This document shows, piece by piece, positions 8,876 through 21,932 of a stretch of 21,933 bases of DNA. The first letter of the stretch is position 1. The number at the start of each line of letters is the position of its first letter. The notes below the pieces were generated by a model, which searched no databases, was not told where the DNA came from, and worked only from the letters and a program-made list of their open reading frames with translations. The DNA is taken from NCBI GenBank assembly GCA_039698055.1, contig JBDKTL010000028.1, positions 1-21,933 of the forward strand, written 5' to 3'. The position numbers and the translations under genes were made by a program. The DNA is from Methanoregula sp. (lineage in GTDB: Archaea; Halobacteriota; Methanomicrobia; Methanomicrobiales; Methanospirillaceae).

Positions 8876-9583
8876 ATGTCCCCCGCACCCGATATCCGCT
8901 ACAGCCTTGTCATCCCCGCATACAATGAAGAGAACCGTATCGCATTCCTTTTCGATGCGATCACCCGTTTTGACGGGGAGCTTATTGTCGTCTGCGATGG
9001 GACTGATTCGACTGCCGATGTGGTCGGGGAGATTGCCAAAAAGCGCCCTGACCTGTCGATCCGGTGCCTGCGGTTTACCACCCGGCTTGGAAAAGGAGGA
9101 GGGGTCATTGCCGGGCTTGTGGCGGCACAGGCACCACTCGTCGGGTACGTGGACGCGGACGGGTCAACCCGGATGGATGAGATGATCCGGCTGTTTTCCC
9201 GGCTTTCATCCTCCGATGCCGCCATTGGTTCACGCTGGGTCGCCGGTTCGCAGCTGGGCGTCCGCCAGAGCCTGATGCGGCAACTGGAGAGCAGGGGATT
9301 TAACCTGTTTATCCGGATCTTTTTTGGCCTTTCCTTCAACGACACCCAGTGCGGGGCAAAAGTCTTTAAAAAAACCGCGCTCGACACTGTATTGCCAAAG
9401 ATGATCTCCCGGGGGTTTGAATTTGACGTCGAACTTCTCTGGCGGTTGTCAAAGGAGGGGTACCGCATCGATGAATGTCCTATTGAATGGCAGAACAAAG
9501 GGGATTCGCGGGTACAGAAAAGCGATATGATCCGGATGCTTGCAGGCCTGTTAAAGGTCAGGTTCGCCGCAGGGAATGCATGA
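8876..9583 (+). CDS. GT2 glycosyltransferase (dolichyl-phosphate glucosyltransferase-like)
   Basis: SLVIPAYNEE, VCDG, GKGGG, YVDADGS, IGSR, DTQCGAKVF, FEFDVELL. Alternative GTG start at 8867. Confidence 0.92.
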   Translation: MSPAPDIRYSLVIPAYNEENRIAFLFDAITRFDGELIVVCDGTDSTADVVGEIAKKRPDLSIRCLRFTTRLGKGGGVIAGLVAAQAPLVGYVDADGSTRMDEMIRLFSRLSSSDAAIGSRWVAGSQLGVRQSLMRQLESRGFNLFIRIFFGLSFNDTQCGAKVFKKTALDTVLPKMISRGFEFDVELLWRLSKEGYRIDECPIEWQNKGDSRVQKSDMIRMLAGLLKVRFAAGNA

Positions 9584-11394
9584 TACCAAGGACAGAGCAG
9601 GAACAAAAAAAGGAAGCGGTCCGGCTTTTTGAGGACGGGCGGTACCAGGAGTCGCTGGAGATCTGCCACCTCCTGCTAGAAACGGTAAAAGACCCGACCC
9701 TTGAGATTCTTGCCGCCACCAACCTCTATTATACCGGAAAACTTGAGGATGCCGAGGTTTTTTTCCGTGACATTGCGCAGAAGATGCCCGAATCGTCCTA
9801 TGTCCACAGTTTCCTTGCAAAAGTCCTGGAAAGCCGGGGCGACGATGGCGCAATTGCCGAATATGCCCTTGCCGTGCAGCTTGACCCGACAAACCAGGCA
9901 GCACTCCGCAGTTATGCCGATTACCTGGTGCTGCGCAAAGATTTCCGGGGCGCACTGCCGGTCCTCAGGCGACTGGTGGATGCAGGGAGAAAACCCGGCG
10001 ACGTGCATGACCTGATGCGGGCGCTCATCGCAGCGGGGAATGCACAGGAAGCACTTGCCGTGTCCGCACAGTACGGGTCGGGTCATACCCGAACCGGGGA
10101 ATATGTGGACGCGCTTATCACGACGCAGAAGTACCGGGCCGCCGCCGATGCAGCGAGCCTGCTCTATAAAGAGACTCCTGACCCCGCCATGACACGCAGG
10201 TATCTTGCCGCACATTCGCTGGACGATCCAGCCGCCGGACCGGATGCCTATGCTGCATGTCTTGCCGATGCCGACAACGACGATATCCGGGCAGATTATG
10301 TCCGGCTCTTACAGGCTGAAAGAAGATATGCCGAAGCGCTCGCCGCATTACAATCCCTGTGCACCCGAACGTCCCTTCCCCTCTACCGGCTCATGGAGTG
10401 CGAGATCCTCGCAGCGACAGGTAACGACGTGGAAACGATCGCGGCATATGAGCGGCTTATTGGCGACGAACTCATAACAAAAAATGATCTTGAGATGCTG
10501 GAGCACATCATCAGGTCTTACCGGTCCTTTATCGTTTCGCACAGTGCTCCCGATACCGCCCGGGAGCGTTTCCTGTCCGTCGTCTCGCAGGATGTAAACG
10601 TTGTGAGCCTGCTTGAAACCGCCCGGTGGTATGAGGATGAGAGAAATGCGGTTGAAGCACGGGCATGGTATTACCGTGCGTACCGTGCCGATTACTTAAA
10701 CGGCGGGTTACCTTATGCCCGGTTCCTGTCCAGTCACGGGGAGGAACGGGAATGCGAGAAAGTGATGCTCTATATCCTTTCCAACGTGAAAAAGAGCGCC
10801 GATCTCGGGCGGGTTGCCAGAGTCATCGTGGATAAGAGCGGGACGATGCACCAGCTCAAACGGCTGGTCGGCCAGTTGATCAAACGGCTGGTCGAACGCC
10901 GGGCAGGCCTGAGTTCGGATGAGATGGAACTGCTGGCAGTCGCATTCTTTATCGCCGCACAACGGGCGCTCGAAGAGGCGGACTATGCGGAATGCAAGTA
11001 TTACAGTCTCTGCGGGATGGACGTCCTGCCGGCACAGGCAACCGGTTGCCAGCTGGAGGATTTCCTCGGGCTTATTAGGACATGCAAGGACCAGTCGATT
11101 GCCGAACGCCCCGTGATGCAGGCAGCACCGATAAAAAAACGGGTGACCACCGCACATCCCGTACCGGTACTGGCGCAACAGGTGGAACTATCAGACCAGG
11201 AGCAGAAGATCGTTGCATTTATCCGGTCACACCGCAAAGCAACCGAGATGGACCTGCGGGCACTGCTCCAGACCCGCCGGGTGACGGGGATCGTGAACCG
11301 GCTGATCCAGAAAGCAACGGCACAGGGAATCATGCTCATCAGGAAAAATGGTGTGGGAGATGACGGAGAGATCTATGAATATGCCGGAACCTGA
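9580..11394 (+). CDS. Large TPR/helical-repeat protein with a C-terminal winged-helix-like domain
   Basis: TPR-like units (AIAEYALAVQLDPTNQAALRSYADYL), a Pro/Lys linker, then LSDQEQKIVAFIRSHRKATEMDLRALL. ATG 9580 overlaps the GT2 stop (ATGA). Confidence 0.8.
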   Translation: MIPRTEQEQKKEAVRLFEDGRYQESLEICHLLLETVKDPTLEILAATNLYYTGKLEDAEVFFRDIAQKMPESSYVHSFLAKVLESRGDDGAIAEYALAVQLDPTNQAALRSYADYLVLRKDFRGALPVLRRLVDAGRKPGDVHDLMRALIAAGNAQEALAVSAQYGSGHTRTGEYVDALITTQKYRAAADAASLLYKETPDPAMTRRYLAAHSLDDPAAGPDAYAACLADADNDDIRADYVRLLQAERRYAEALAALQSLCTRTSLPLYRLMECEILAATGNDVETIAAYERLIGDELITKNDLEMLEHIIRSYRSFIVSHSAPDTARERFLSVVSQDVNVVSLLETARWYEDERNAVEARAWYYRAYRADYLNGGLPYARFLSSHGEERECEKVMLYILSNVKKSADLGRVARVIVDKSGTMHQLKRLVGQLIKRLVERRAGLSSDEMELLAVAFFIAAQRALEEADYAECKYYSLCGMDVLPAQATGCQLEDFLGLIRTCKDQSIAERPVMQAAPIKKRVTTAHPVPVLAQQVELSDQEQKIVAFIRSHRKATEMDLRALLQTRRVTGIVNRLIQKATAQGIMLIRKNGVGDDGEIYEYAGT

Positions 11395-12676
11395 ACAGAT
11401 GGACCCGGGCAGGATTGCAAGCCTGAATATCATCAATGCCCTCCGGAGGGGTACGGTGCCGGCGGGGGGGCTTGAACGCATCGCCGTCGGGCTTGACGTG
11501 GAAGAAGGCGTCATTGGCAAACAGCTCGATTACGTGGCGCAGGGAGGCGGCGACCTGAAATTTATCCGGGGCGATTACGGGAGCGGCAAAACGTTTCTTG
11601 TCGCCCGTTCCCTCGAGATCGCGACCGATAAAGGGTTTGTCACCACCCACGTCATCATCGGTTCACAGGCGCCGCTTTACAAGGTAAAAGCGATCTACCA
11701 GCAGATCTGCGCAAACCTCCGCACAAAGGAAGAGGATCACGCGCTGAAAATGATCGTCGACAACTGGCTTTTTTCCATTGAAGAGCGGTTACTGTCGGTC
11801 AGCGGGTCCGGTGAAGAGGATGCCGCCCTTGAAGCCGCAACCGAAAAGGAGATCGAGGCGGCACTTGCGGGCATCAGCGAGATGAACACGGCGCTTGCCG
11901 CAGCTCTAAGGACCTACTACCGGGCAAACAATGCCGGGGATTTTGCGCTGGCACAGTCGGCACTCGGGTGGATTTCCGGCGAGCCAAATATCGGCCGGGA
12001 CTTCAAACAGAAAGCGGGTATCAAAGGAGAGATTGACGATACGATAGCGTTTGCATTCCTCAGGGGGCTTGTCACGATCATCCACGGGTCCGGGTACAAG
12101 GGGATCGCCATTGCAGTTGACGAGATGGAAACAACACAGGGGCTCCAGCGCAACCAGCGCGAGAAGGGATACCACACGCTTGTCCAGATCATCGATGCGC
12201 TTGACCGGGGCGATATGCCCCGGTGCTATTTCCTTTTTACCGGGACACCAGCGTTCTTTGACGGTTCACGCGGCATCCGCTCCGTCACCCCGCTCTATGA
12301 CCGTATCAGCGTCGTGCAGGCAGACAATTTCAAAAATCCCCGCCAGCCACAGATCCACCTGGCAAAATTTGATACCGGTAAACTCGAACTGGTCGCGCTC
12401 AAGGTTATCGATGTTTATTCGCAGGCGTACCGTGAAGTCGACCGCGAGCGGATCTCCCACCGTTTTATCCGGGCGATGATCAAAAAGATCACGAACCGTT
12501 TTGGCGGACGGATCGACGTGATCCCCCGGATTTTCTTAAAGGAGTTCGTCGATGTGCTGGACAAATGCGAGCTCTATGACCAGTATAACCCGTGGGACGG
12601 ATATGAATTCGACGCGGAGCATATGAAAGGCGAACTGAAAAAAGAAGAAGAAGCGGTCATGGTCGTCGAGTTCTGA
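11375..12676 (+). CDS. BrxD-like / DUF2791 P-loop ATPase
   Basis: NALRRGTVP, KFIRGDYGSGKT (Walker A), IAVDEME (Walker B), FLFTGTP, PRIFLKEFVDVLD. Start at 11375 or 11381, overlapping the upstream gene. Confidence 0.85.
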   Translation: MNMPEPEQMDPGRIASLNIINALRRGTVPAGGLERIAVGLDVEEGVIGKQLDYVAQGGGDLKFIRGDYGSGKTFLVARSLEIATDKGFVTTHVIIGSQAPLYKVKAIYQQICANLRTKEEDHALKMIVDNWLFSIEERLLSVSGSGEEDAALEAATEKEIEAALAGISEMNTALAAALRTYYRANNAGDFALAQSALGWISGEPNIGRDFKQKAGIKGEIDDTIAFAFLRGLVTIIHGSGYKGIAIAVDEMETTQGLQRNQREKGYHTLVQIIDALDRGDMPRCYFLFTGTPAFFDGSRGIRSVTPLYDRISVVQADNFKNPRQPQIHLAKFDTGKLELVALKVIDVYSQAYREVDRERISHRFIRAMIKKITNRFGGRIDVIPRIFLKEFVDVLDKCELYDQYNPWDGYEFDAEHMKGELKKEEEAVMVVEF

Positions 12677-14975: not shown

Positions 14976-16265
14976 TTAGTTGTATCCTGGCAGTTCTCCC
15001 AAGGGCTGAGCAACCAGGTCTTCATACCTCAACAGTCCATCCCCGGCGGGATCTCCCATAGACCGGTTGTCATCAGCATCGGTGTATTTTGTCAGGTTCA
15101 TATGGGTATTATTCCCATTTTTATACACCTGAGAGTTGTTGAAAATATGCCAAGTCGGATCGGAATGGACCCAGGCACTACCTACTCGGTTTTCCAGGAT
15201 GCCATGCCCAAAGACCTGTCCGGTCTCATTCACCCACGTAATACCGAGGAACCGTGATGGGATCCCGAGCGAGCGGCTGAAGGTTACGTCCATCGTGGCA
15301 TACTCATCGCACACGCCCTCGTATCCCTGGTTTATTACATAGAGATCAGATGCAGCATAGAGCTTGTTCGTGTCAGAATCGACATAATGCATCGTATCAT
15401 TCACGTATGTGTTCAGTGTATTGGCAGTTTCAAACGGTGAGTTGGTGTTGTCAGCTGCGGTTGCTGCTTCCAAGATGATCGCATATCCTTCACTGAACGG
15501 GAAATGGTACAGGTCGCTTGTCTCAAGGTTGTCCCCGCCATCCGGGTCTGGCAGGTGCGAGGCATCATTGTTGTATTTTTCAATCCCGTTCAGTTCCAGT
15601 TGCCCGGACCATGTCACGGTATTGTCGGGGCCCACGGTGATGAAGGATCCCATCGGTTTTATTCCCACGGTACTCTGGCTTCCAACGACCATGAACGGGA
15701 TGGAAACCGTCATATTCGCACCGGGAGCGAGGTTCAAATACTCTGCCGGTGTGCCGAACCCATCTTCGATGGATACGAAATACACCAGGCCGCTAGCGGC
15801 TGTTGATCCATAATTGTGTATGACAACGGTCTGGGTAGCAACGGTGTCCTGTGTCCAGTACCAGTTGAAATACCCGTATTCCGGTGCCACGGGTGGGATC
15901 ACCGCTGCTGCCTTTGCCACGACATTGGTCTTCGATTCTGGCGTAACGAAGTTGATCTTCGCCGCTTTCATCGAGGACTTCTCAACATCAATAAAATTGT
16001 TTCCGGTCGGGAACTTCATATTTGGGCTGATAACTTCGACCCCCGGGTATGCTTTTGCCGTTTGTGCATCCATCTTTTTGATCGGGACCGTCGGAACAAT
16101 CACACTATACGCCGACATGTCCTTTTGTCCTGCCCATTCATCGAACTGTCCGACCCATCCCGGCGGTGTCGGGTTTGTCTGGTTCGTCGCGCTTGCAAGC
16201 GGAACAAACACCATTACCAGCATCACTGCCGCGAGCAGCAGTGAAAATCCTTTCATGTGTTTCAT
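14976..16265 (-). CDS. Secreted transglutaminase-like (papain-fold) cysteine enzyme with an Ig/CARDB-like domain
   Basis: Signal peptide ending PLASA; triad motifs GVCDEYA...RSLGIPSR, FGHG, WVHSDPTW; GGAGGT SD upstream. Confidence 0.85.
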   Translation of the reverse strand: MKHMKGFSLLLAAVMLVMVFVPLASATNQTNPTPPGWVGQFDEWAGQKDMSAYSVIVPTVPIKKMDAQTAKAYPGVEVISPNMKFPTGNNFIDVEKSSMKAAKINFVTPESKTNVVAKAAAVIPPVAPEYGYFNWYWTQDTVATQTVVIHNYGSTAASGLVYFVSIEDGFGTPAEYLNLAPGANMTVSIPFMVVGSQSTVGIKPMGSFITVGPDNTVTWSGQLELNGIEKYNNDASHLPDPDGGDNLETSDLYHFPFSEGYAIILEAATAADNTNSPFETANTLNTYVNDTMHYVDSDTNKLYAASDLYVINQGYEGVCDEYATMDVTFSRSLGIPSRFLGITWVNETGQVFGHGILENRVGSAWVHSDPTWHIFNNSQVYKNGNNTHMNLTKYTDADDNRSMGDPAGDGLLRYEDLVAQPLGELPGYN

Positions 16266-16394
16266 AGGGTTTTTTTACCTCCGTGTTGTTACGGAAGCAT
16301 GATCCAAAATCTTCATTAGAACAGAAGTTCATTGTATTATGCCTACGGGCAGGGTCGGGTTTGTCAAGTGTGCAAACTTATGTGAACCCGTCCT
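16266..16394 (-). promoter_or_regulatory. Structured 5' leader, copy A (candidate cis-regulatory RNA)
   Basis: Homologous to 21120-21241. Stem CGGGUU/AACCCG around GCACACUUGAC, hairpin UGCC-CGUA-GGCA, SD-sequestering hairpin at 16276-16299. Confidence 0.75.
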
Positions 16395-16420
16395 TTCCAC
16401 TTTTGAGATCAACATTCGTG

Positions 16421-16428
16421 ATATAAAG
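16421..16428 (-). promoter_or_regulatory. Putative archaeal TATA box
   Basis: CTTTATAT on the minus strand, preceded by A-rich AAATAAC, about 28 nt before the first leader stem. Confidence 0.5.
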
Positions 16429-16507
16429 GTTATTTGATTCAATCTTTTAGATACAAATCGGTGATCCTCCGGTATTAAAGGTATGGAATATACATCCCGG
16501 AACCGTG

Positions 16508-17434
16508 TCAGATCTGCATGTCACAGATCATATAACGGATGCCCTTGTCCGGATAGGTGACAATGATCTGGAGATGGACGGGGACAGTCTCATTACCTGA
16601 CACGTCTCTGCCTTGGAGGGTGACTGATGCTTTCCTCTGGAATGGGAGCCCTTCCGGGGGGTTGATAACAGCATCAAGACCCGATCCCATAATTATCGAC
16701 TGGTTACTGGCATCTTTTTCATTAAGGAAAATCTTCACGGACGGAACCACATCATGTTTTATCCCTGAATCAGGTTGCATGACGATGCGAATGGAATCAG
16801 GGGCGGTACGGGTTACATCCACCCTGTCGTTAATGGGGACAAAACACCTGAGCTCTTCTGCAACGGGTCCCGGATTCCCGAGGTATAGCAGAACCGGCGG
16901 GACGATCAGGACTGCGAGGAGTAAAAACCTGGAGGAATGCAGTTGTCTCGTAATAGCGGATATATTTTGGATCTTCCTATCCTCCGGTGCGAATCCGCAT
17001 CGGGGTTCAGAGAAATATGCGCCGATGGCCTGTATGACCGCCGATGATATGAGGATTCCTGTCACTAGGATCGGCGAATCGGAAAAATCCGCTGAGTCCA
17101 ATACCAGTGTTTTGAACGCAACCAGCGCTGTGAACACAAGCGCTGTACAAATCCCGGACACCATTCCGATAATCAGCGCCCGTGAATTTTTTCCGGTACA
17201 GAACAAGCATCCTGTAAAAAAACCAAGGAGTGCGAATATGAGTGCAAACAGTACGATTACCTGAATAGAGTAATAATCATACAGAGAATGACATACTGCA
17301 AACGGAAGAAACTGATCCCATATCCCCTGCAGGAGAAAATACGCTGTTGCTGAACAGGCGCCGCCAAAACACCCAACGAGGATAATTACCGGTATCCGTG
17401 TCAGTAATTGCGTATGCTCACGAAAGGCACCCAT
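16508..17434 (-). CDS. Multi-TM membrane protein with a C-terminal pilin-like beta domain, paralog 3 of 3
   Basis: About five hydrophobic helices, then VDVTRTAPDSIRI...SGLD..INPPEGL...HLQIIVTYPDKG. ATG 17434 follows GGTGA; alternative GTG at 17443. Confidence 0.78.
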   Translation of the reverse strand: MGAFREHTQLLTRIPVIILVGCFGGACSATAYFLLQGIWDQFLPFAVCHSLYDYYSIQVIVLFALIFALLGFFTGCLFCTGKNSRALIIGMVSGICTALVFTALVAFKTLVLDSADFSDSPILVTGILISSAVIQAIGAYFSEPRCGFAPEDRKIQNISAITRQLHSSRFLLLAVLIVPPVLLYLGNPGPVAEELRCFVPINDRVDVTRTAPDSIRIVMQPDSGIKHDVVPSVKIFLNEKDASNQSIIMGSGLDAVINPPEGLPFQRKASVTLQGRDVSGNETVPVHLQIIVTYPDKGIRYMICDMQI

Positions 17435-17451
17435 GCATGTCACCAGAGAAA

Positions 17452-18429
17452 TTAAAGGTATAGATCGCGGTGTATCCCGGTCGAGCTCTTATCTGGAACG
17501 ATCACCTGAATGTGAGCAGGCATTGTTTCATTGGCAATCACATCCCTGCCCTGTAATATCACATAATCTCCATCCTGCCGTCCCAGTCCTTCACGGGGAG
17601 TAATTGTAACATCAAGTCCTGATTTTGCTATGAGCTCCTGGTTACTGACAATAATTCCATTCAGGAGAATCCTGAAAGTGTTATGGGACCCGCAACTCGA
17701 GCTCACCTTCAGACTTACGTGGATGGAATCCGGGCTGGTACGTACTACTGTAACATTGTCAGGAAGCTTTCCCGTACCGCATTGGTGACCGGGCTCACAC
17801 GTCGTCCCCTCCGGACACGCGAAGTAATCCGTGGTATCAACGGGGAGTGCAAGGAGACCAAGGGGAAATATAAGAAAGAGCGCGCATAATGCCACGAAGA
17901 AAAACCAGTGACGATATTTCCTGCCTGCTTGAGCCGAAGGTGCGGGTTCATCCGGACCTTGTCCGGATATCAAGCGGGATCCCTGATACCATGCACCGAG
18001 AACCTGAGGGAGGGTTGTGATCAGGATATACGCAACCAGAATGTAAATCAATATCTCCGCCAGGAACATGGGATGACTGCCCAAGATAAAACCTAAGGGA
18101 TATATTTCAACGAGGATAATGGTGACAAGAGTGGTACAGGCCCCGGATACCAATCCGGTCCGGATCGGATCCCGCCCTGTTTTTCTGCCGATACAGAACA
18201 GATCCGCCGTAACCATACCCAAAGTGAATGAAAGAAGGATAATTGTCCCGAATTTCCAGAACGGGTATAACGGGCTTACGATGTAAGAATAACAGGAAAT
18301 GAAAATTATCTGCTCTGCTTTCTGCAGGTAATAACAGGCTGCTGTTAAACATATGCCGCAAAAACAACCCCAAAGGATTATTGCAGGAAGCGACACCCGC
18401 AACCATTTATGATCAGAAAAGATGCCCAT
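17452..18429 (-). CDS. Multi-TM membrane protein with a C-terminal pilin-like beta domain, paralog 2 of 3
   Basis: Same architecture: VTVVRTSPDSIHV...SGLDVTITPREGL...HIQVIVPDK, plus a Cys-rich insert; GGAGA SD. Confidence 0.78.
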   Translation of the reverse strand: MGIFSDHKWLRVSLPAIILWGCFCGICLTAACYYLQKAEQIIFISCYSYIVSPLYPFWKFGTIILLSFTLGMVTADLFCIGRKTGRDPIRTGLVSGACTTLVTIILVEIYPLGFILGSHPMFLAEILIYILVAYILITTLPQVLGAWYQGSRLISGQGPDEPAPSAQAGRKYRHWFFFVALCALFLIFPLGLLALPVDTTDYFACPEGTTCEPGHQCGTGKLPDNVTVVRTSPDSIHVSLKVSSSCGSHNTFRILLNGIIVSNQELIAKSGLDVTITPREGLGRQDGDYVILQGRDVIANETMPAHIQVIVPDKSSTGIHRDLYL

Positions 18430-18579
18430 GATTCTCCAAAAAATTAGTTGAAGGGGTTTGTTGATAATACCTTTCCGGAAATCGCATCAACCGTTCCAGT
18501 GGTGTTAAAGACCAATTCTCTGAAACAATTTTCCATTTTAAAAAACGCAACTGGCATTCACACGTCCGGCAAATAAACA

Positions 18580-19578
18580 TCAGATATCCCGGTCACAGAT
18601 TATCGCCCGTTCACCGGTGTCTGGATAGGTGACAATAATTACGAGACGAACAGGGACTGTGTCATTTGCTGATGCGTCTTTGCCCCGGAGTATCACGGAC
18701 GCCCCGTTCCTATACAGGAGACCCTCTGAAGGTTTGATAGTATCGTCAAGTCCAGATTCTGTTATTATCGACCGGTTACTGACGTCCTTCTCACCAAGGA
18801 GAATTTGCACTGATGGAAGAGGTGAAGTTGTTCTCCGGACCTTGTTTGGATCAGGTTTCATGACGATCTGAACAGAGTCAGGGGCGGTGCGGGTTACGTC
18901 CACGCTATCGGTAATTGCGTAATCCCGGGGCTGTTCTGCAATGACTCCCGTACTCATACCGAGATATAACAGGCTTGGAGGGATGATCAGGACTGCGAGG
19001 ACTCCAAGTAATAAAAACCTGTAGGAAGGTAGTTTTTTCGTAATTGCTGGTGAGTCCGGGGTCTTCATATCATCCTGTGGAGCGCTGCGTCGGGATTCAC
19101 GGAAATATGCCCCCATTGCCTGTATGATGGTTGATATAAGAATAAATCCTGCGAGCGGGATCAACCACTGGTGGAAAAGCCCGTCGAGAAATACCCGAAT
19201 CAGGAAAGGATCACCAGCATAATGAAGTATCGGCGGATGGGAAATCATATCGTGAATAACAAGGATTGACGTAAACACGAGTGCTGTACATGTGCCGGAC
19301 ACCATTCCGATAAGAACCGGACCGAGCGCACGGTATCTGCCGGGGCTGAACAGGTCAGCTGCAATCACGGCCAGAACCCATAACAGAACGGCAAACGATC
19401 CAATTATCTGGAACTGGAATACCGGGGATAATAATGCGTAATTATATGCCAGGACCGGGGACCAGATGCCCTGCAGGAAGAAACTCACCGCAGCTAAACA
19501 GATGCCTCCGAAACAACCCCAGAGGACGATTGCCGGAATCAAAGCCAATAATCGGTCATGCTCGCGAATGGATTCCAT
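18580..19578 (-). CDS. Multi-TM membrane protein with a C-terminal pilin-like beta domain, paralog 1 of 3
   Basis: VDVTRTAPDSVQI...SGLDDTIKPSEGL...RLVIIVTYPDTG. Shares the GTGACATGCATG start context with 16508-17434. Confidence 0.78.
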   Translation of the reverse strand: MESIREHDRLLALIPAIVLWGCFGGICLAAVSFFLQGIWSPVLAYNYALLSPVFQFQIIGSFAVLLWVLAVIAADLFSPGRYRALGPVLIGMVSGTCTALVFTSILVIHDMISHPPILHYAGDPFLIRVFLDGLFHQWLIPLAGFILISTIIQAMGAYFRESRRSAPQDDMKTPDSPAITKKLPSYRFLLLGVLAVLIIPPSLLYLGMSTGVIAEQPRDYAITDSVDVTRTAPDSVQIVMKPDPNKVRRTTSPLPSVQILLGEKDVSNRSIITESGLDDTIKPSEGLLYRNGASVILRGKDASANDTVPVRLVIIVTYPDTGERAIICDRDI

Positions 19579-19593
19579 GCATGTCACAAAAAT

Positions 19594-20412
19594 TTATTGG
19601 AGGGGGTAAACTGATAACACATTCCCCAGAACAGCATCAACGATAACCGTTCCGCCATGACTGGTGTTATCATTGTTCGTTTCAATGGTCTCTACCATCC
19701 AGGCAAGCTTCTGGTTATCTCTGTCGGGAACAACTACTAATTTTGACTGGATTTTTGCGGCTGATCCCATTGCGAAGGTGCGCAGGGCTGTCTCCTGGGC
19801 AACGTTCTGTGATACTTTTGGAGTAGTATCAACGAGTAGTGGACGGTCTATCCCGATATAGGCGATTGAATTGTCCCAATCCGGGAGAACTGAGACCATG
19901 ACGGCAGACTGGGTGTATGCTTCTCCGGCCATCTCGTTCCAGACAAACAGGTATTCCCTGCCCGCATCACCATGATCAAGGATTCGCGATTCGGTAAGGA
20001 CCATGTTTTTACTGTTGAAGTCCCGGTAGTTCTTTTGGGCAAAAGCCTTAGCCTGCATCTCCATGCCGGGAATATCCTTTGCAGTGATAGAACTCGATAA
20101 TATCCCGTCCCGGATTATTGCCGATTCTATCTCACCGGTTTTTGCATTAATGGTAAACCGGCCGGTCTTTGTCGTAACTTCGTAAACTTTCCCGCTCGGT
20201 AGTTCTTTCGTCCCACGGTAAGCGATTTCTTCGTTCGGAGTTCCTGTAAAGTTCTGGATGTTCTCTTTAACTAATCCGGTCCCAATCGTTTCCGGTGAAA
20301 TAAGGGCATTCGAACCCTGGCTGGTATCTGCCGCGGCAACAGCCGAACAAGCAAAAACCAGTGATAATCCAATGATAATTCCGATAAGTTTTGAAAGGTT
20401 GATTTTCAACAT
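19594..20412 (-). CDS. Secreted protein with a PepSY/propeptide-like C-terminal region
   Basis: Signal peptide ending AVAAA; TPKVSQNVAQETAL...KLVV...KLAWMVE...VIVDAVLGNVL; GAGGTGA SD before ATG 20412. Confidence 0.7.
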   Translation of the reverse strand: MLKINLSKLIGIIIGLSLVFACSAVAAADTSQGSNALISPETIGTGLVKENIQNFTGTPNEEIAYRGTKELPSGKVYEVTTKTGRFTINAKTGEIESAIIRDGILSSSITAKDIPGMEMQAKAFAQKNYRDFNSKNMVLTESRILDHGDAGREYLFVWNEMAGEAYTQSAVMVSVLPDWDNSIAYIGIDRPLLVDTTPKVSQNVAQETALRTFAMGSAAKIQSKLVVVPDRDNQKLAWMVETIETNNDNTSHGGTVIVDAVLGNVLSVYPLQ

Positions 20413-20426
20413 CTTGTTCACCTCGA

Positions 20427-21119
20427 TTAATACCCTGCCCTCGCCGGGTCGATCGCGCTGGAGATGCTGCCCTGGATGACGTAACTGTCCATTCCCCCGG
20501 GATTGAGTAAGCCATACTGAGCACGGGTATCGATGAGAGAGTACACGGCTGCATCGTGGATGTTATACCGCTCATCAAGATAGTACCAGAACCTGTTTGA
20601 CCAGTACTCGGACTGTGGCGAGGTGATATAATTGCTGAAGCCTACCGCAGTGTCAACTCCCCGGGATGTTGACTCATATAACAGGTTCCCGTTCGTTGAA
20701 TCGGTGTTAGCAGTATTGCATGCTACATAAACCGCGAGTGCAACATCATTTAATTCGCCACTGGTGAACGACGAAAGTCTTATAAGACCAGGATTGCTTG
20801 CGGAAATAGCACTGTCTACTCCGTTGTGCTGGAATACAATCTGGCCCGGGCTCCCATGACCATCGACGAAAAATACATTGTCTGAGGGCATCCGCAAAAA
20901 GACACTGCTCGCACTTGGATTCTCAATATACGAAGCCGAATAACCCATACTTGTGAGTTCATTTGCCGCAACCTGTCCGGTTGCACGGGTATCAATAGTA
21001 TCGTAATAGACTCCGTAACTGCTTGCCTGGTACGCACTCACGCATGGTGTGAGCACCATTCCTGCCAGCAAAAGTGCAGACAGGAATGTACCAAATCTGA
21101 TACTGTTCATGTTTTTCAT
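20427..21119 (-). CDS. Secreted caspase/gingipain-fold (clan CD, DUF6345-like) cysteine protease candidate
   Basis: Signal peptide ending PCVSA; VFFVDGHGSPG (His-Gly) and LAVYVACNTA (Ala-Cys) dyad motifs; GVDTAVGF, RFWYYL; GGAGGT SD before ATG 21119. Confidence 0.72.
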   Translation of the reverse strand: MKNMNSIRFGTFLSALLLAGMVLTPCVSAYQASSYGVYYDTIDTRATGQVAANELTSMGYSASYIENPSASSVFLRMPSDNVFFVDGHGSPGQIVFQHNGVDSAISASNPGLIRLSSFTSGELNDVALAVYVACNTANTDSTNGNLLYESTSRGVDTAVGFSNYITSPQSEYWSNRFWYYLDERYNIHDAAVYSLIDTRAQYGLLNPGGMDSYVIQGSISSAIDPARAGY

Positions 21120-21241
21120 TACCTCCGTTCTGTTACATCGCGGAGGCATGATTCAAATTTTCTTTTAGGAGGAGGAAATCTGTTTCATGCCTACGGGCAG
21201 GACCGGGTTTGTCAAGTGTGCATCCAATGTAAACCCGGTCT
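21120..21241 (-). promoter_or_regulatory. Structured 5' leader, copy B (candidate cis-regulatory RNA)
   Basis: Perfect 10-bp stem GACCGGGUUU/AAACCCGGUC around GCACACUUGAC, hairpin UGCC-CGUA-GGCA, SD-sequestering hairpin at 21120-21148. Confidence 0.75.
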
Positions 21242-21542
21242 CATCTTTTGAGGCAACTTTTGGCTGCCCACAATAAGCGATTTATAATTTCGTTATATAT
21301 TTTCTCTGTCCCTATCATCGAACTGGGAAAATTTTCTCAAAAAAGTGAAAGATGTTGGCCGATGAAAACTTCATTGAATTTACCGGTCATGGATAGGAAA
21401 GAAAATGTTACAGGTGTGACAGTAACCTGCGCGGGGAAATATTCCGGACTCGTTAAAATCAATTACCATTATGAATGGGTATGAAGGTGACTGGGTTTGC
21501 AGGCGGCCCCGTCCGACTCCAAAGAGAAAAACCCGGTACTCC

Positions 21543-21932
21543 TTATTTCCGGAACTTCCTCAATATAGCCTCAACTTCCGGTAAAATGATATAGTTCCTG
21601 TTCCTGCCGTCCCACCGGAAAGCAACCATCTCCTCTTCAATGAACTGTTGGAGATGCCAATGAATCGTGTTCCGTTTTAAATCCAAACGCTCCGCGATCT
21701 CCTTATTGCTGATGCCTGGTTGGTCGAGTATCAAATTGAGAATTTTCTGCTTTGTCGGATTCATGATATATCCGTAGACTCTTTTTTTCTCAAGGGGTCT
21801 CCCGCTGTTGGCGAAAATATAACTCAGTTTCCCATATTTTTTTTGCACAACCTTTCGTTCGAGAAGGAGAAGGTAGAGATGATACCGGGCGGTTCCCCGG
21901 TTAATGCCGGTATTTTTCGAGAGATCCGCAAT
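21543..21932 (-). CDS. Archaeal transcription regulator with two winged-HTH domains (5' end outside the window)
   Basis: Frame stays open to the window edge: IADLSKNTGINRGTARYHL..., then TKQKILNLILDQPGISNKEIAERLDLKRNTIHWHLQQF. Confidence 0.85.
   Translation of the reverse strand: MADLSKNTGINRGTARYHLYLLLLERKVVQKKYGKLSYIFANSGRPLEKKRVYGYIMNPTKQKILNLILDQPGISNKEIAERLDLKRNTIHWHLQQFIEEEMVAFRWDGRNRNYIILPEVEAILRKFRK

Follow-up and report, generated by a model that had tools for sequence, protein, structure and literature searches.

The window analysed here, a 21,933-nucleotide (nt) stretch of Methanoregula sp. DNA (GenBank assembly GCA_039698055.1, contig JBDKTL010000028.1, positions 1 to 21,933), carries on its minus strand two genes for signal-peptide proteins, each preceded by a hairpin that can bury the Shine-Dalgarno (SD) sequence of the messenger RNA (mRNA). 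Gene A (14976-16265) encodes a 429-amino-acid (aa) protein with a transglutaminase-like core (Transglut_core, E 4.9e-10) and a putative cysteine peptidase fold, and relatives at 85% identity are present in Methanoregula metagenome-assembled genomes. Gene B (20427-21110) encodes a 227-aa protein (227-230 aa, depending on the start) of no known family and is the first of five open reading frames (ORFs) on the same strand. In copy B an AUG at 21119 lies only 2 nt past the SD GGAGG, and a second one at 21110 lies 11 nt past it; the latter is the likely start of gene B, as a spacing of 11 nt is usual in the leader family described below. A sequence-only reading of this DNA had placed a conserved hairpin in front of "both enzyme genes". 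This wording fails, because the A and B proteins showed no homology on comparison and B belongs to no family, which leaves A as the only one with an enzyme-like domain.

Results

Two hairpins bury the Shine-Dalgarno sequence

The two hairpins are present exactly as the sequence-only reading had written them, down to the numbers of base pairs (bp) and of G-U pairs. In copy A (16276-16299, minus strand), UGCUUCCGU (16299-16291) pairs across an AACAAC loop with ACGGAGGUA (16284-16276), giving a 9-bp stem that includes two G-U pairs on the mRNA strand and holds the SD GGAGG (16282-16278) inside its 3' arm. In copy B (21120-21148, minus strand), UGCCUCCG (21148-21141) and CGGAGGUA (21127-21120) flank a 13-nt loop and form an 8-bp stem with one G-U pair, again with GGAGG (21126-21122) inside the 3' arm. 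RNA folding assigns -11.7 kcal/mol to the hairpin of copy A (z -3.20; 1 of 200 shuffles equally good) and -14.1 kcal/mol to that of copy B (z -3.33; 3 of 200 equally good).

As a chance control, a count of gapless helices did not discriminate, 30 of 293 sites having a helix of at least 8 bp, and pairing probabilities were therefore adopted instead. These were computed in a -60 to +12 context for the 326 GGAGG-(4-13 nt)-ATG/GTG sites of the same 2.26-Mb assembly whose start codon begins an ORF of 100 aa or more; some of the sites are not real starts. Against a median probability of 0.35 that the SD is unpaired, copy B ranks first of the 326 sites (0.0001) and copy A ranks 16th (0.008). Both window hairpins are real, and they bury the SD beyond the background of the genome. 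The earlier view of an SD-burying RNA helix on the sense strand is borne out for both copies.

The hairpins belong to a leader family of two methanogen orders

Each window hairpin is the last helix, which we call P4, of a long conserved mRNA leader. The regions upstream of genes A and B can be aligned over ~150 nt, share exact blocks of 19 nt and 13 nt and are almost identical over a stretch of 37 nt, and BLAST within the taxonomic family retrieved related stretches from 11 of 101 genomes, with several per genome. An alignment of 28 BLAST stretches (A3), seeded among others with copies A and B and a third copy of the same genome (contig C8), gave the covariance model R1, which describes three helices, P1, P2 and P3. 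R1 matches copy A at 16283-16402 (95.9 bits) and copy B at 21131-21249 (81.8 bits), each over the full length of the model, and finds three full copies in this Methanoregula genome. All genome counts that follow are counts of samples, and absence refers to the genomes searched. R1 matches 33 of 61 genomes of the genus, with at most 16 matches each, and 45 of 151 Methanomicrobiales genomes in 5 of 6 families and 14 of 33 genera, with at most 22 matches per genome. Outside the order, a sample of the phylum added one family, the Methanosarcinaceae (5 of 16 genomes), and no match was found in 112 genomes of 18 other families. Among 101 Methanosarcinaceae genomes R1 matches 33, in 6 of 14 genera, including 18 of 26 genomes of the genus that holds Methanosarcina. 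The matches together exceed 300, and complete Methanoregula genomes carried 3 to 22 copies.

The leader is ~150-175 nt long and reads, from 5' to 3', an optional hairpin P0, P1, the invariant motif GCCCGNAGGC, P2 nested in P3, the anti-SD GCCUCC, a loop, the SD and the start codon. The hairpin of the sequence-only reading exists, but only as the final helix of this longer leader. Often, copies form tandem clusters with 2-5 kb between them (genomes G050, G118, G012 and G272): contig C6 of G118 carries copies at 16.7, 21.1, 24.4, 27.3, 30.3 and 35.4 kb and contig C5 of G012 about ten, a layout that points to arrays of leader-gene units.

By a simple rule, 63 of 70 called ORFs behind the leader encode signal-peptide-like products, and all 22 Methanosarcinaceae ORFs open, by eye, with a basic and then a hydrophobic stretch. 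Pfam assigns 59 Methanomicrobiales proteins to reprolysin-like M12 peptidases (4), C39-like peptidases (4), DUF6345 (3), PKD (2), subtilases (2), transglutaminase-like proteins (1) and no family (40), and 22 Methanosarcinaceae proteins to C39-like peptidases (4), a reprolysin-like peptidase (1), DUF6973 (1) and no family (15). The halocin C8-like domain of NCBIfam (TIGR04449, cut-off 24) is found in one protein at 42.8 bits, and another falls just below at 23.9 bits. The leader thus marks a mixed set of exported proteins. At two Methanoregula loci (L060, L063) it precedes 53-aa cysteine-rich ORFs that share C-x-C-x-C-x-C-S-C-F-P-I-I-N-P-S and have no signal peptide; these may be precursor peptides.

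Covariation supports the helices of the leader

In copy A, P1 is the long hairpin GGACGGGUU ... AACCCGACC (16353-16393), which covaries in the family and folds more strongly on the plus, antisense strand; its counterpart in copy B is GACCGGGUUU ... AAACCCGGUC (21201-21240). The invariant motif is GCCCGUAGGC in both copies (16341-16350 and 21189-21198, minus strand) and reads GCC-UACG-GGC on the plus strand. R1 matches and constrained folds place P3 on the minus strand at 16295-16344 in copy A, where AGGCAU (16344-16339) pairs with AUGCUU (16300-16295) and encloses P2 (~16328-16310), and at 21144-21192 in copy B, where AGGCAUGA (21192-21185) pairs with UCAUGCCU (21151-21144), encloses P2 (~21180-21154) and overlaps with its 3' arm the anti-SD of P4. 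The family consensus of P3 is AGGCAUG:CRUGCCU. P0, a strong hairpin just upstream of P1 in 44 of 77 Methanomicrobiales members, is absent from copy A and present in copy B as the 5'-terminal hairpin GGCAGC/GUUGCC (21252-21268, minus strand), with one G-U pair that exists on the sense strand only. The full leader B (173 nt) folds with -49.1 kcal/mol (z -3.26), a value that none of 200 shuffles equals.

Across 79 distinct Methanomicrobiales members, 88.2% of the cells in P1, P2 and P3 pair and 19 of 24 pairs show double changes (124 cells); none of 500 shuffles reaches these pairing values, and partners slid by 1-3 columns pair at 41-51%. The 24 distinct Methanosarcinaceae members give 91.4% pairing, double changes in 12 of 24 pairs and again 0 of 500 shuffles. 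Most of the covariation comes from P1 and P2. P3 is nearly invariant save for a U-G/U-A alternation (35 versus 33) and a few double changes in the Methanomicrobiales, and the case for it therefore rests on its conservation, on this alternation and on a strand asymmetry to which we return below.

For P4, we took the CCU that ends P3 as an anchor and, in 103 distinct members, searched the sequence ahead of the start codon for the partner strand. The core CCUC:GAGG pairs in at least 87% of them and the flanking pairs covary, so the earlier description of the hairpin as conserved applies to the family as well. Position 4 is C-G in 32 members, U-A in 19 and U-G in 15, position 5 is G-C in 22 and U-A in 23, and whole-helix variants such as CCUCUU:AAGAGG, CCUCAU:AUGAGG, CUCCUG:CAGGAG and CCACC:GGUGG occur. 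Positions 4-6 pair in 0.55 of cells, compared with 0.48 +/- 0.023 in arm-swapped, re-optimised controls (0 of 200 as high). This covariation effect is modest but consistent, and the SD-burying hairpin holds family-wide.

A helix of this kind might be an RNA thermometer that melts on warming, an imperfect SD helix with G-U pairs being what one would look for, and Rfam gives a weak match to the HtrA thermometer (19.3 bits). That match is far under the gathering score of 52 (E 0.32), however, and the helices are stable, with the folding energies given above. Moreover, the genes are not heat-shock, virulence or host-sensing genes, and a thermometer would leave 120 nt of conserved upstream leader superfluous. 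We therefore regard a thermometer as highly improbable.

Three other readings of conserved elements were set aside. By eye, the invariant motif could be read as part of a kink-turn or as a GNA triloop, both of which we dropped for the antisense tetraloop reading given below; a look by eye, with no formal search, found no consistent kink-turn motif (three-nt bulge plus tandem sheared G-A) in the family alignments. An upstream ORF starting at the NUG in the P3 3' arm was rejected as well, as any of the four bases may stand at N and no consistent frame links it to the main ORF. In one large subclass (for example L010, L021 and L027) CGAGCGNAGCG stands directly 3' of GCCUCC; it is absent from the window copies and is similar to the first invariant motif (xCGNAGx), except that the flanking bases are exchanged.

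P3 and P4 compete for the anti-Shine-Dalgarno sequence

The 3' arm of P3 (CRUGCCU) and the anti-SD (CCUCCG) have CCU in common (UGCUU in copy A), and because this stretch belongs to both, P3 and P4 are mutually exclusive. Enforcing P3 leaves the SD mostly paired in 16 of 66 members, and blocking the 5' arm of P3 does so in 60 of 66. Constrained folds of 82 members give a mean difference between the P4 and P3 states (P4 minus P3) of +1.2 kcal/mol (median +1.1, standard deviation 4.4), with the two states within 2 kcal/mol of each other in 34 members, P4 favoured in 19 and P3 favoured in 29. In the window P4 is favoured in both copies, by 4.8 kcal/mol in copy A (-30.9 for the P3 state versus -35.7 for the P4 state) and by 1.8 kcal/mol in copy B (-38.2 versus -40.0). 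The sequence-only reading had taken translation to be off by default. This is too simple, as P3 competes for part of the anti-SD and the two states are nearly iso-energetic across the family.

Blocking the 5' part of the leader in silico, through the AGGC of the P3 5' arm, lowers the probability that the SD is unpaired from a mean of 0.32 to 0.08 and from a median of 0.25 to 0.003. The probability falls in 46 of 70 members and rises in one.

The leader family includes the mRNA partner of sRNA162

In Methanosarcina mazei, the 191-nt small RNA sRNA162 is encoded between MM2441, a gene for an ArsR-type regulator, and MM2442 (Jäger 2012, PMC3510493). According to that report, 5' rapid amplification of complementary DNA ends shows that transcription of MM2442 begins 184 nt ahead of the annotated start, and the MM2442 leader and the 5' end of sRNA162 overlap in antisense over 65 nt. 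The same report describes stable 5' fragments of sRNA162 (nt 1-55, 1-60 and 1-65) that build up in stationary phase, gel-shift and footprint evidence that its 5' part binds the MM2442 leader, a slight drop in MM2442 mRNA when sRNA162 is overexpressed, and a paralogue, sRNA171, that adjoins MM2449 (PMC3510493). BLAST found homologues of sRNA162 only in M. acetivorans and M. barkeri, and its role was called elusive (PMC3510493); a 2024 Ribo-seq study lists it as abundant and untranslated (PMC11456600).

The Rfam family of this RNA (RF02792, sRNA162, "antisense") lies opposite the leader in 9 of 24 scanned Methanosarcinaceae loci, at 78-197 bits (gathering score 78), and at these passing loci position 1 of the model always falls inside the invariant GCCCGNAGGC of the leader. 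Because sRNA162 is antisense to the leader and starts in GCCCGNAGGC, the leader family includes the mapped MM2442 leader. Indeed, R1 was built from Methanoregulaceae leaders and finds the Methanosarcina leaders, and both leaders are long (184 nt measured in M. mazei by PMC3510493 and ~150-175 nt here). A winged-helix (ArsR-like) regulator gene, cut by the contig end, lies upstream of copy B (21543-21932, minus strand; HTH_24, E 5e-17) and is homologous to the regulator upstream of the Methanosarcina sRNA162/leader locus (28% identity over 128 aa, E 2e-15). Relatives of this regulator were found by tblastn within 1.5 kb of the leader at 19 of 104 loci; the adjacency holds for copy B, not for copy A.

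At the Methanosarcina loci L105-L113 the ORFs start at UUG, 7-8 nt past a strong SD, AAGAGGUG, and database entries for some of these proteins are 14 aa shorter and start at an internal Met. MM2442 was said to have "no RBS", that is, no ribosome-binding site (PMC3510493), and an overlooked UUG start may explain this remark. Two of these loci (L109 and L113) carry, behind the leader, genes for cysteine-rich secreted proteins with a halocin C8-like domain; judged by this domain, these sRNA162-type loci precede archaeocin-like genes.

The 5' part of the leader bears marks of an opposite-strand RNA

The invariant GCCCGNAGGC is present in 89 of 103 members, with N being U in 47, A in 21, G in 15 and C in 6. 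On the opposite strand it reads GCC-UNCG-GGC, a tetraloop hairpin, and tetraloops of the UNCG type tolerate any base at the N position. Which strand a helix serves can be judged from its non-Watson-Crick cells, G-U pairing on the sense strand and A-C marking a pair on the opposite strand only, as Watson-Crick covariation is blind to the strand. P1 holds 59 A-C cells versus 20 G-U cells, P3 holds 53 G-U versus 11 A-C and P2 holds 40 G-U versus 21 A-C. P1 is more stable in antisense in 65 of 79 Methanomicrobiales members (by 3.15 kcal/mol on average) and in 14 of 24 Methanosarcinaceae members, and P3 together with P2 is more stable in sense in 60 of 79 and 21 of 24.

In the window, folding and the RF02792 alignment point to a candidate cis-antisense small RNA opposite leader A (16341-16405, plus strand), which would consist of the tetraloop hairpin, a long hairpin and then UUUCCACUUUUG. 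It folds with -22.9 kcal/mol (z -2.9), compared with -16.0 kcal/mol (z -0.7) for the mRNA strand; for copy B (21189-21255) the values are -26.0 (z -2.8) and -20.9 kcal/mol (z -1.9). This architecture, a short 5'-terminal hairpin followed by a long stem-loop, is that of the fold of nt 1-65 of a Methanosarcina sRNA162 (L106). In a match below the gathering score, RF02792 begins at the invariant motif of copy A, and its model positions 1 to ~80 align with high posterior to 16341-16420, reaching the flank UUUCCACUUUUGAG. The first ~65 nt of the window leader thus bear the marks of an RNA on the opposite strand, and Methanoregula may produce such an antisense RNA.

The conservation of the leader could instead reflect a metabolite or an RNA-binding protein that reads a core made up of the P1 base, GCCCGNAGGC and P2/P3 and thereby sets the balance between P3 and P4. 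About 60 well-conserved positions surround covarying helices, the leader contains an expression platform with alternative pairing, and one leader is common to a large regulon. Yet the downstream genes, which encode peptidases, halocin-like proteins and unknowns, have no common metabolic theme, and Rfam offers no sense-strand match, with none in the window at the gathering score and none relevant at E <=10. The conservation of the 5' half is also better explained on the opposite strand, and a crude screen for additional covarying column pairs, a pseudoknot or a pocket gave nothing clear, being dominated by G-U artefacts of related sequences. Such a riboswitch or protein-binding leader seems improbable to us. 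Of the triggers that the sequence-only reading had listed, a riboswitch of the metabolite kind and a thermometer gained no evidence in their favour. Its small RNA option gained the most, through homology to the MM2442 leader/sRNA162 pair of M. mazei, with binding to be expected at the 5' end of the leader and not at the hairpin.

Promoters and transcription of the leaders

Upstream of copy A, the TATA-like UUUAUAUC (16420-16427, minus strand) predicts, by promoter spacing, a transcript start near 16397-16402, just before P1. For copy B, the usual spacing between an archaeal promoter and its start, applied to a transcription factor B recognition element (BRE) and TATA-like GACAGAGAAA-AUAUAUAA (21293-21310, minus strand), predicts a start near 21270. 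The GGACAGAAA-TATA arrangement is found in other copies too, including one of Methanosarcina. In many copies GGACAG(A)AAA directly precedes the BRE/TATA box (window 21293-21340; loci L042, L066, L095 and L100), and several have a long inverted repeat, CTGTCC-N6-TCAAACTG / CAGTTTGA-N6-GGACAG. This arrangement resembles an operator on which one common transcription factor would act, perhaps the winged-helix regulator encoded nearby.

Contigs assembled from RNA libraries, which are unstranded and come from two runs of one sample of the study that probably also supplied the window DNA, cover a minus-strand stretch (18396-21264) that contains leader B, gene B, a gene for a PepSY-domain protein and a 335-aa ORF. 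The contig of each run reaches from 18396 or 18427 to 21264, at a depth of 165 versus 0-8 in the flanks. From this spanning contig it follows that leader B, including its anti-SD arm, is joined to the coding sequence in an abundant RNA. The sequence-only reading had named a transcript that starts downstream of the anti-SD arm as a finding that would count against it; for copy B the RNA covers the whole leader up to 21264. In both runs the contig ends at this position and continues with non-genomic letters, which we took as library adapter. The end lies in the 5' arm of P0, ~6 nt from the predicted start, and gives a weak hint to the start, contigs being no proof of an end. No RNA contig covers 16046-16695 around leader A and gene A is represented by low-depth pieces only, which says nothing on the transcription of leader A. 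At its other end the operon B contig stops at 18427 or 18396, shortly after six consecutive T (~18445-18440), where the next ORF has its start codon (18429). The first three genes of operon B may be one transcript, with the ORFs at 17452-18429 and 16508-17443 being much less expressed.

These data bear on another explanation of the repeats, that only DNA is conserved, as a cassette of promoter, operator and signal-peptide codons that has been recombined in front of many genes, the repeats being protein sites or chance. The GGACAGAAA-TATA arrangement, the upstream palindromes and the signal-peptide codons are conserved too, and copies are often clustered. However, compensatory changes in P1, P2 and P4 extend across two orders, G-U usage is strand-specific and differs among the helices, leader B is present in RNA contigs, and transcripts have been mapped for both the homologous M. 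mazei leader and its antisense RNA (PMC3510493). An explanation at the level of DNA is thus largely refuted, and we find it hardly credible.

Discussion

What role does the SD-burying hairpin play in a leader that appears to be matched by an RNA from the opposite strand? We propose that P4 is the SD-closing helix of a two-state 5' leader and that an antisense RNA covering the 5' arm of P3 closes it, a proposal that we consider evenly poised between right and wrong. The hairpin itself probably acts as the off position of a translational switch. With P3 formed the SD would be free and the leader on; with the anti-SD closed on the SD as P4 it would be off. Were an antisense RNA to begin at GCC-UNCG-GGC, the first ~65 nt of the leader would be paired to it, from P1 through the AGGC of the P3 5' arm. 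Such pairing would take this arm away from P3, drive the leader into P4 and block initiation. Since blocking the leader through AGGC lowers the probability that the SD is unpaired, antisense binding ~100 nt upstream could close the SD, and this path fits the slight drop of MM2442 mRNA published for overexpression of sRNA162 (PMC3510493). The proposal builds on observed features: the helices and their covariation, the mutual exclusion of P3 and P4, the homology to the sRNA162 locus and the transcription of leader B with its coding sequence. That the switch operates in cells, and that the antisense RNA is made in Methanoregula, we infer.

Several points weigh against this proposal. RF02792 passes at none of 20 Methanomicrobiales loci, and on the plus strand of the window it reaches only 15.9 bits at 16341-16453 (E 0.8; gathering score 78), with the 39-nt linker and SL3, the trans-acting domain of sRNA162, largely deleted in the alignment. 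By eye, neither window copy has a good TATA box for an antisense promoter, and an A-tract, tried as an antisense terminator that would yield a U-tract end, lends little support because it is present in only 34 of 103 members. Double changes in P3 are absent from the Methanosarcinaceae set and confined to few cells of the Methanomicrobiales set. Alignments fitted to a model favour that model, kinship inflates the shuffle tests, and nearest-neighbour energies are approximate. The RNA contigs, being unstranded, do not separate sense from antisense in Methanoregula, and the mRNA of operon B is abundant in one sample, unlike that of a tightly silenced gene, although this is a statement about mRNA level and not about translation. 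Finally, P4 wins without a partner in copies A and B; the window leader may therefore be mainly closed, and by these energies an activator may be needed rather than a repressor.

That P4 is the minimum-energy state of both window copies also suits a static leader, whose fold including P4 would set a fixed low level of translation or, with its 5' hairpins serving as a shield, stabilise the mRNA, any antisense RNA acting through decay or transcriptional interference. The 5'-terminal P0 hairpin of over half the Methanomicrobiales members and the little covariation in P3 go along with such a role, and degradation, transcriptional interference and promoter occlusion were listed as open options for sRNA162 (PMC3510493). 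On the other hand, a static role does not need the P3 5' arm and the adjoining motif, which are almost invariant across two orders, nor does it account for the preference of P3 for the sense strand, seen in both its G-U cells and its stability, or for two states that are nearly iso-energetic across the family. We consider a static leader unlikely, if worth serious thought.

The proposed antisense-closed two-state leader resembles known systems in part. Like the platforms of SD-sequestering riboswitches and thermometers, it contains an anti-SD that pairs with the SD and an alternative helix that competes. It differs from them in having no identified aptamer or Rfam match, and in its likely trigger, the binding of an antisense RNA ~100 nt 5' of the SD. 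In Methanolobus psychrophilus, the 65-nt 5' untranslated region (UTR) of Hsp20 is likewise a methanogen 5' UTR predicted to hide a ribosome-binding site; unlike the leader family, it concerns a single gene with a temperature-dependent choice of transcript start, and the available text describes neither a multi-copy family nor an antisense RNA (PMC5378194). We also considered the leader of the Methanosarcina S-layer gene slmA1 and rejected it as a member, since it is a different conserved UTR of 154 nt (PMC3361143); in a 5.8-Mb Methanosarcina genome (G487) R1 gave only three matches at E <=1, the position of slmA1 itself being unmapped.

The sense/antisense pair is already known from three Methanosarcina species (PMC3510493). 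The available text of PMC3510493 makes no mention of the anti-SD/SD helix, P3, signal peptides, many copies or the Methanomicrobiales. In the literature that we could search, with subscription journals and supplements outside its range, the fold of the leader, the anti-SD helix and its competitor, the link to exported proteins, the many copies and the spread in Methanomicrobiales are undescribed. The window antisense RNA would differ from sRNA162 in lacking the 39-nt linker and SL3, and at most the 5' domain is common to both.

Very few cis-acting RNA controls are, to our knowledge, known in archaea. The leader family ties the unexplained case of MM2442 and sRNA162 to a family with up to 22 copies per genome and supplies a mechanism that can be tested, in which antisense pairing removes one helix and the anti-SD closes on the SD. 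Since Methanosarcina has genetic tools, such tests can be made directly. Where PMC3510493 saw no ribosome-binding site, the family also directs attention to a strong SD and a UUG start further upstream. It is appealing to propose, if only tentatively, that two methanogen orders use this sense/antisense module as a common post-transcriptional switch for a large part of their secreted proteome, with halocin-C8-like proteins, C39-, M12- and transglutaminase-like peptidases and many unknowns in it. Such a module would combine a bistable P3/P4 leader with a short antisense RNA equivalent to the stable 5' fragment of sRNA162. Long identical stretches recur from one leader copy to the next, and a few loci could therefore supply antisense RNAs that act in trans on every copy. 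If this holds true, trans-acting antisense RNAs would place secretion under growth-phase control, and the way in which the 5' domain of sRNA162 represses MM2442, open in 2012, would be explained. The finding also suggests a common regulation of secreted peptidases and archaeocin-like proteins in methanogens.

Other features of the window and of related loci

A search for a conserved divergent gene upstream of the leaders gave only noisy ORFs and was abandoned. At five loci (L015, L029, L030, L095 and L126) small divergent signal-peptide-like ORFs lie on the opposite strand, 150-380 nt upstream of the leader. Elsewhere in the window, a gene for a BrxC/BrxD-type ATPase (11348-12676, plus strand; PF10923, E 1e-130) stands directly 3' of a gene for a 635-aa TPR protein (9487-11394, plus strand), and the two may be part of a phage-defence locus.

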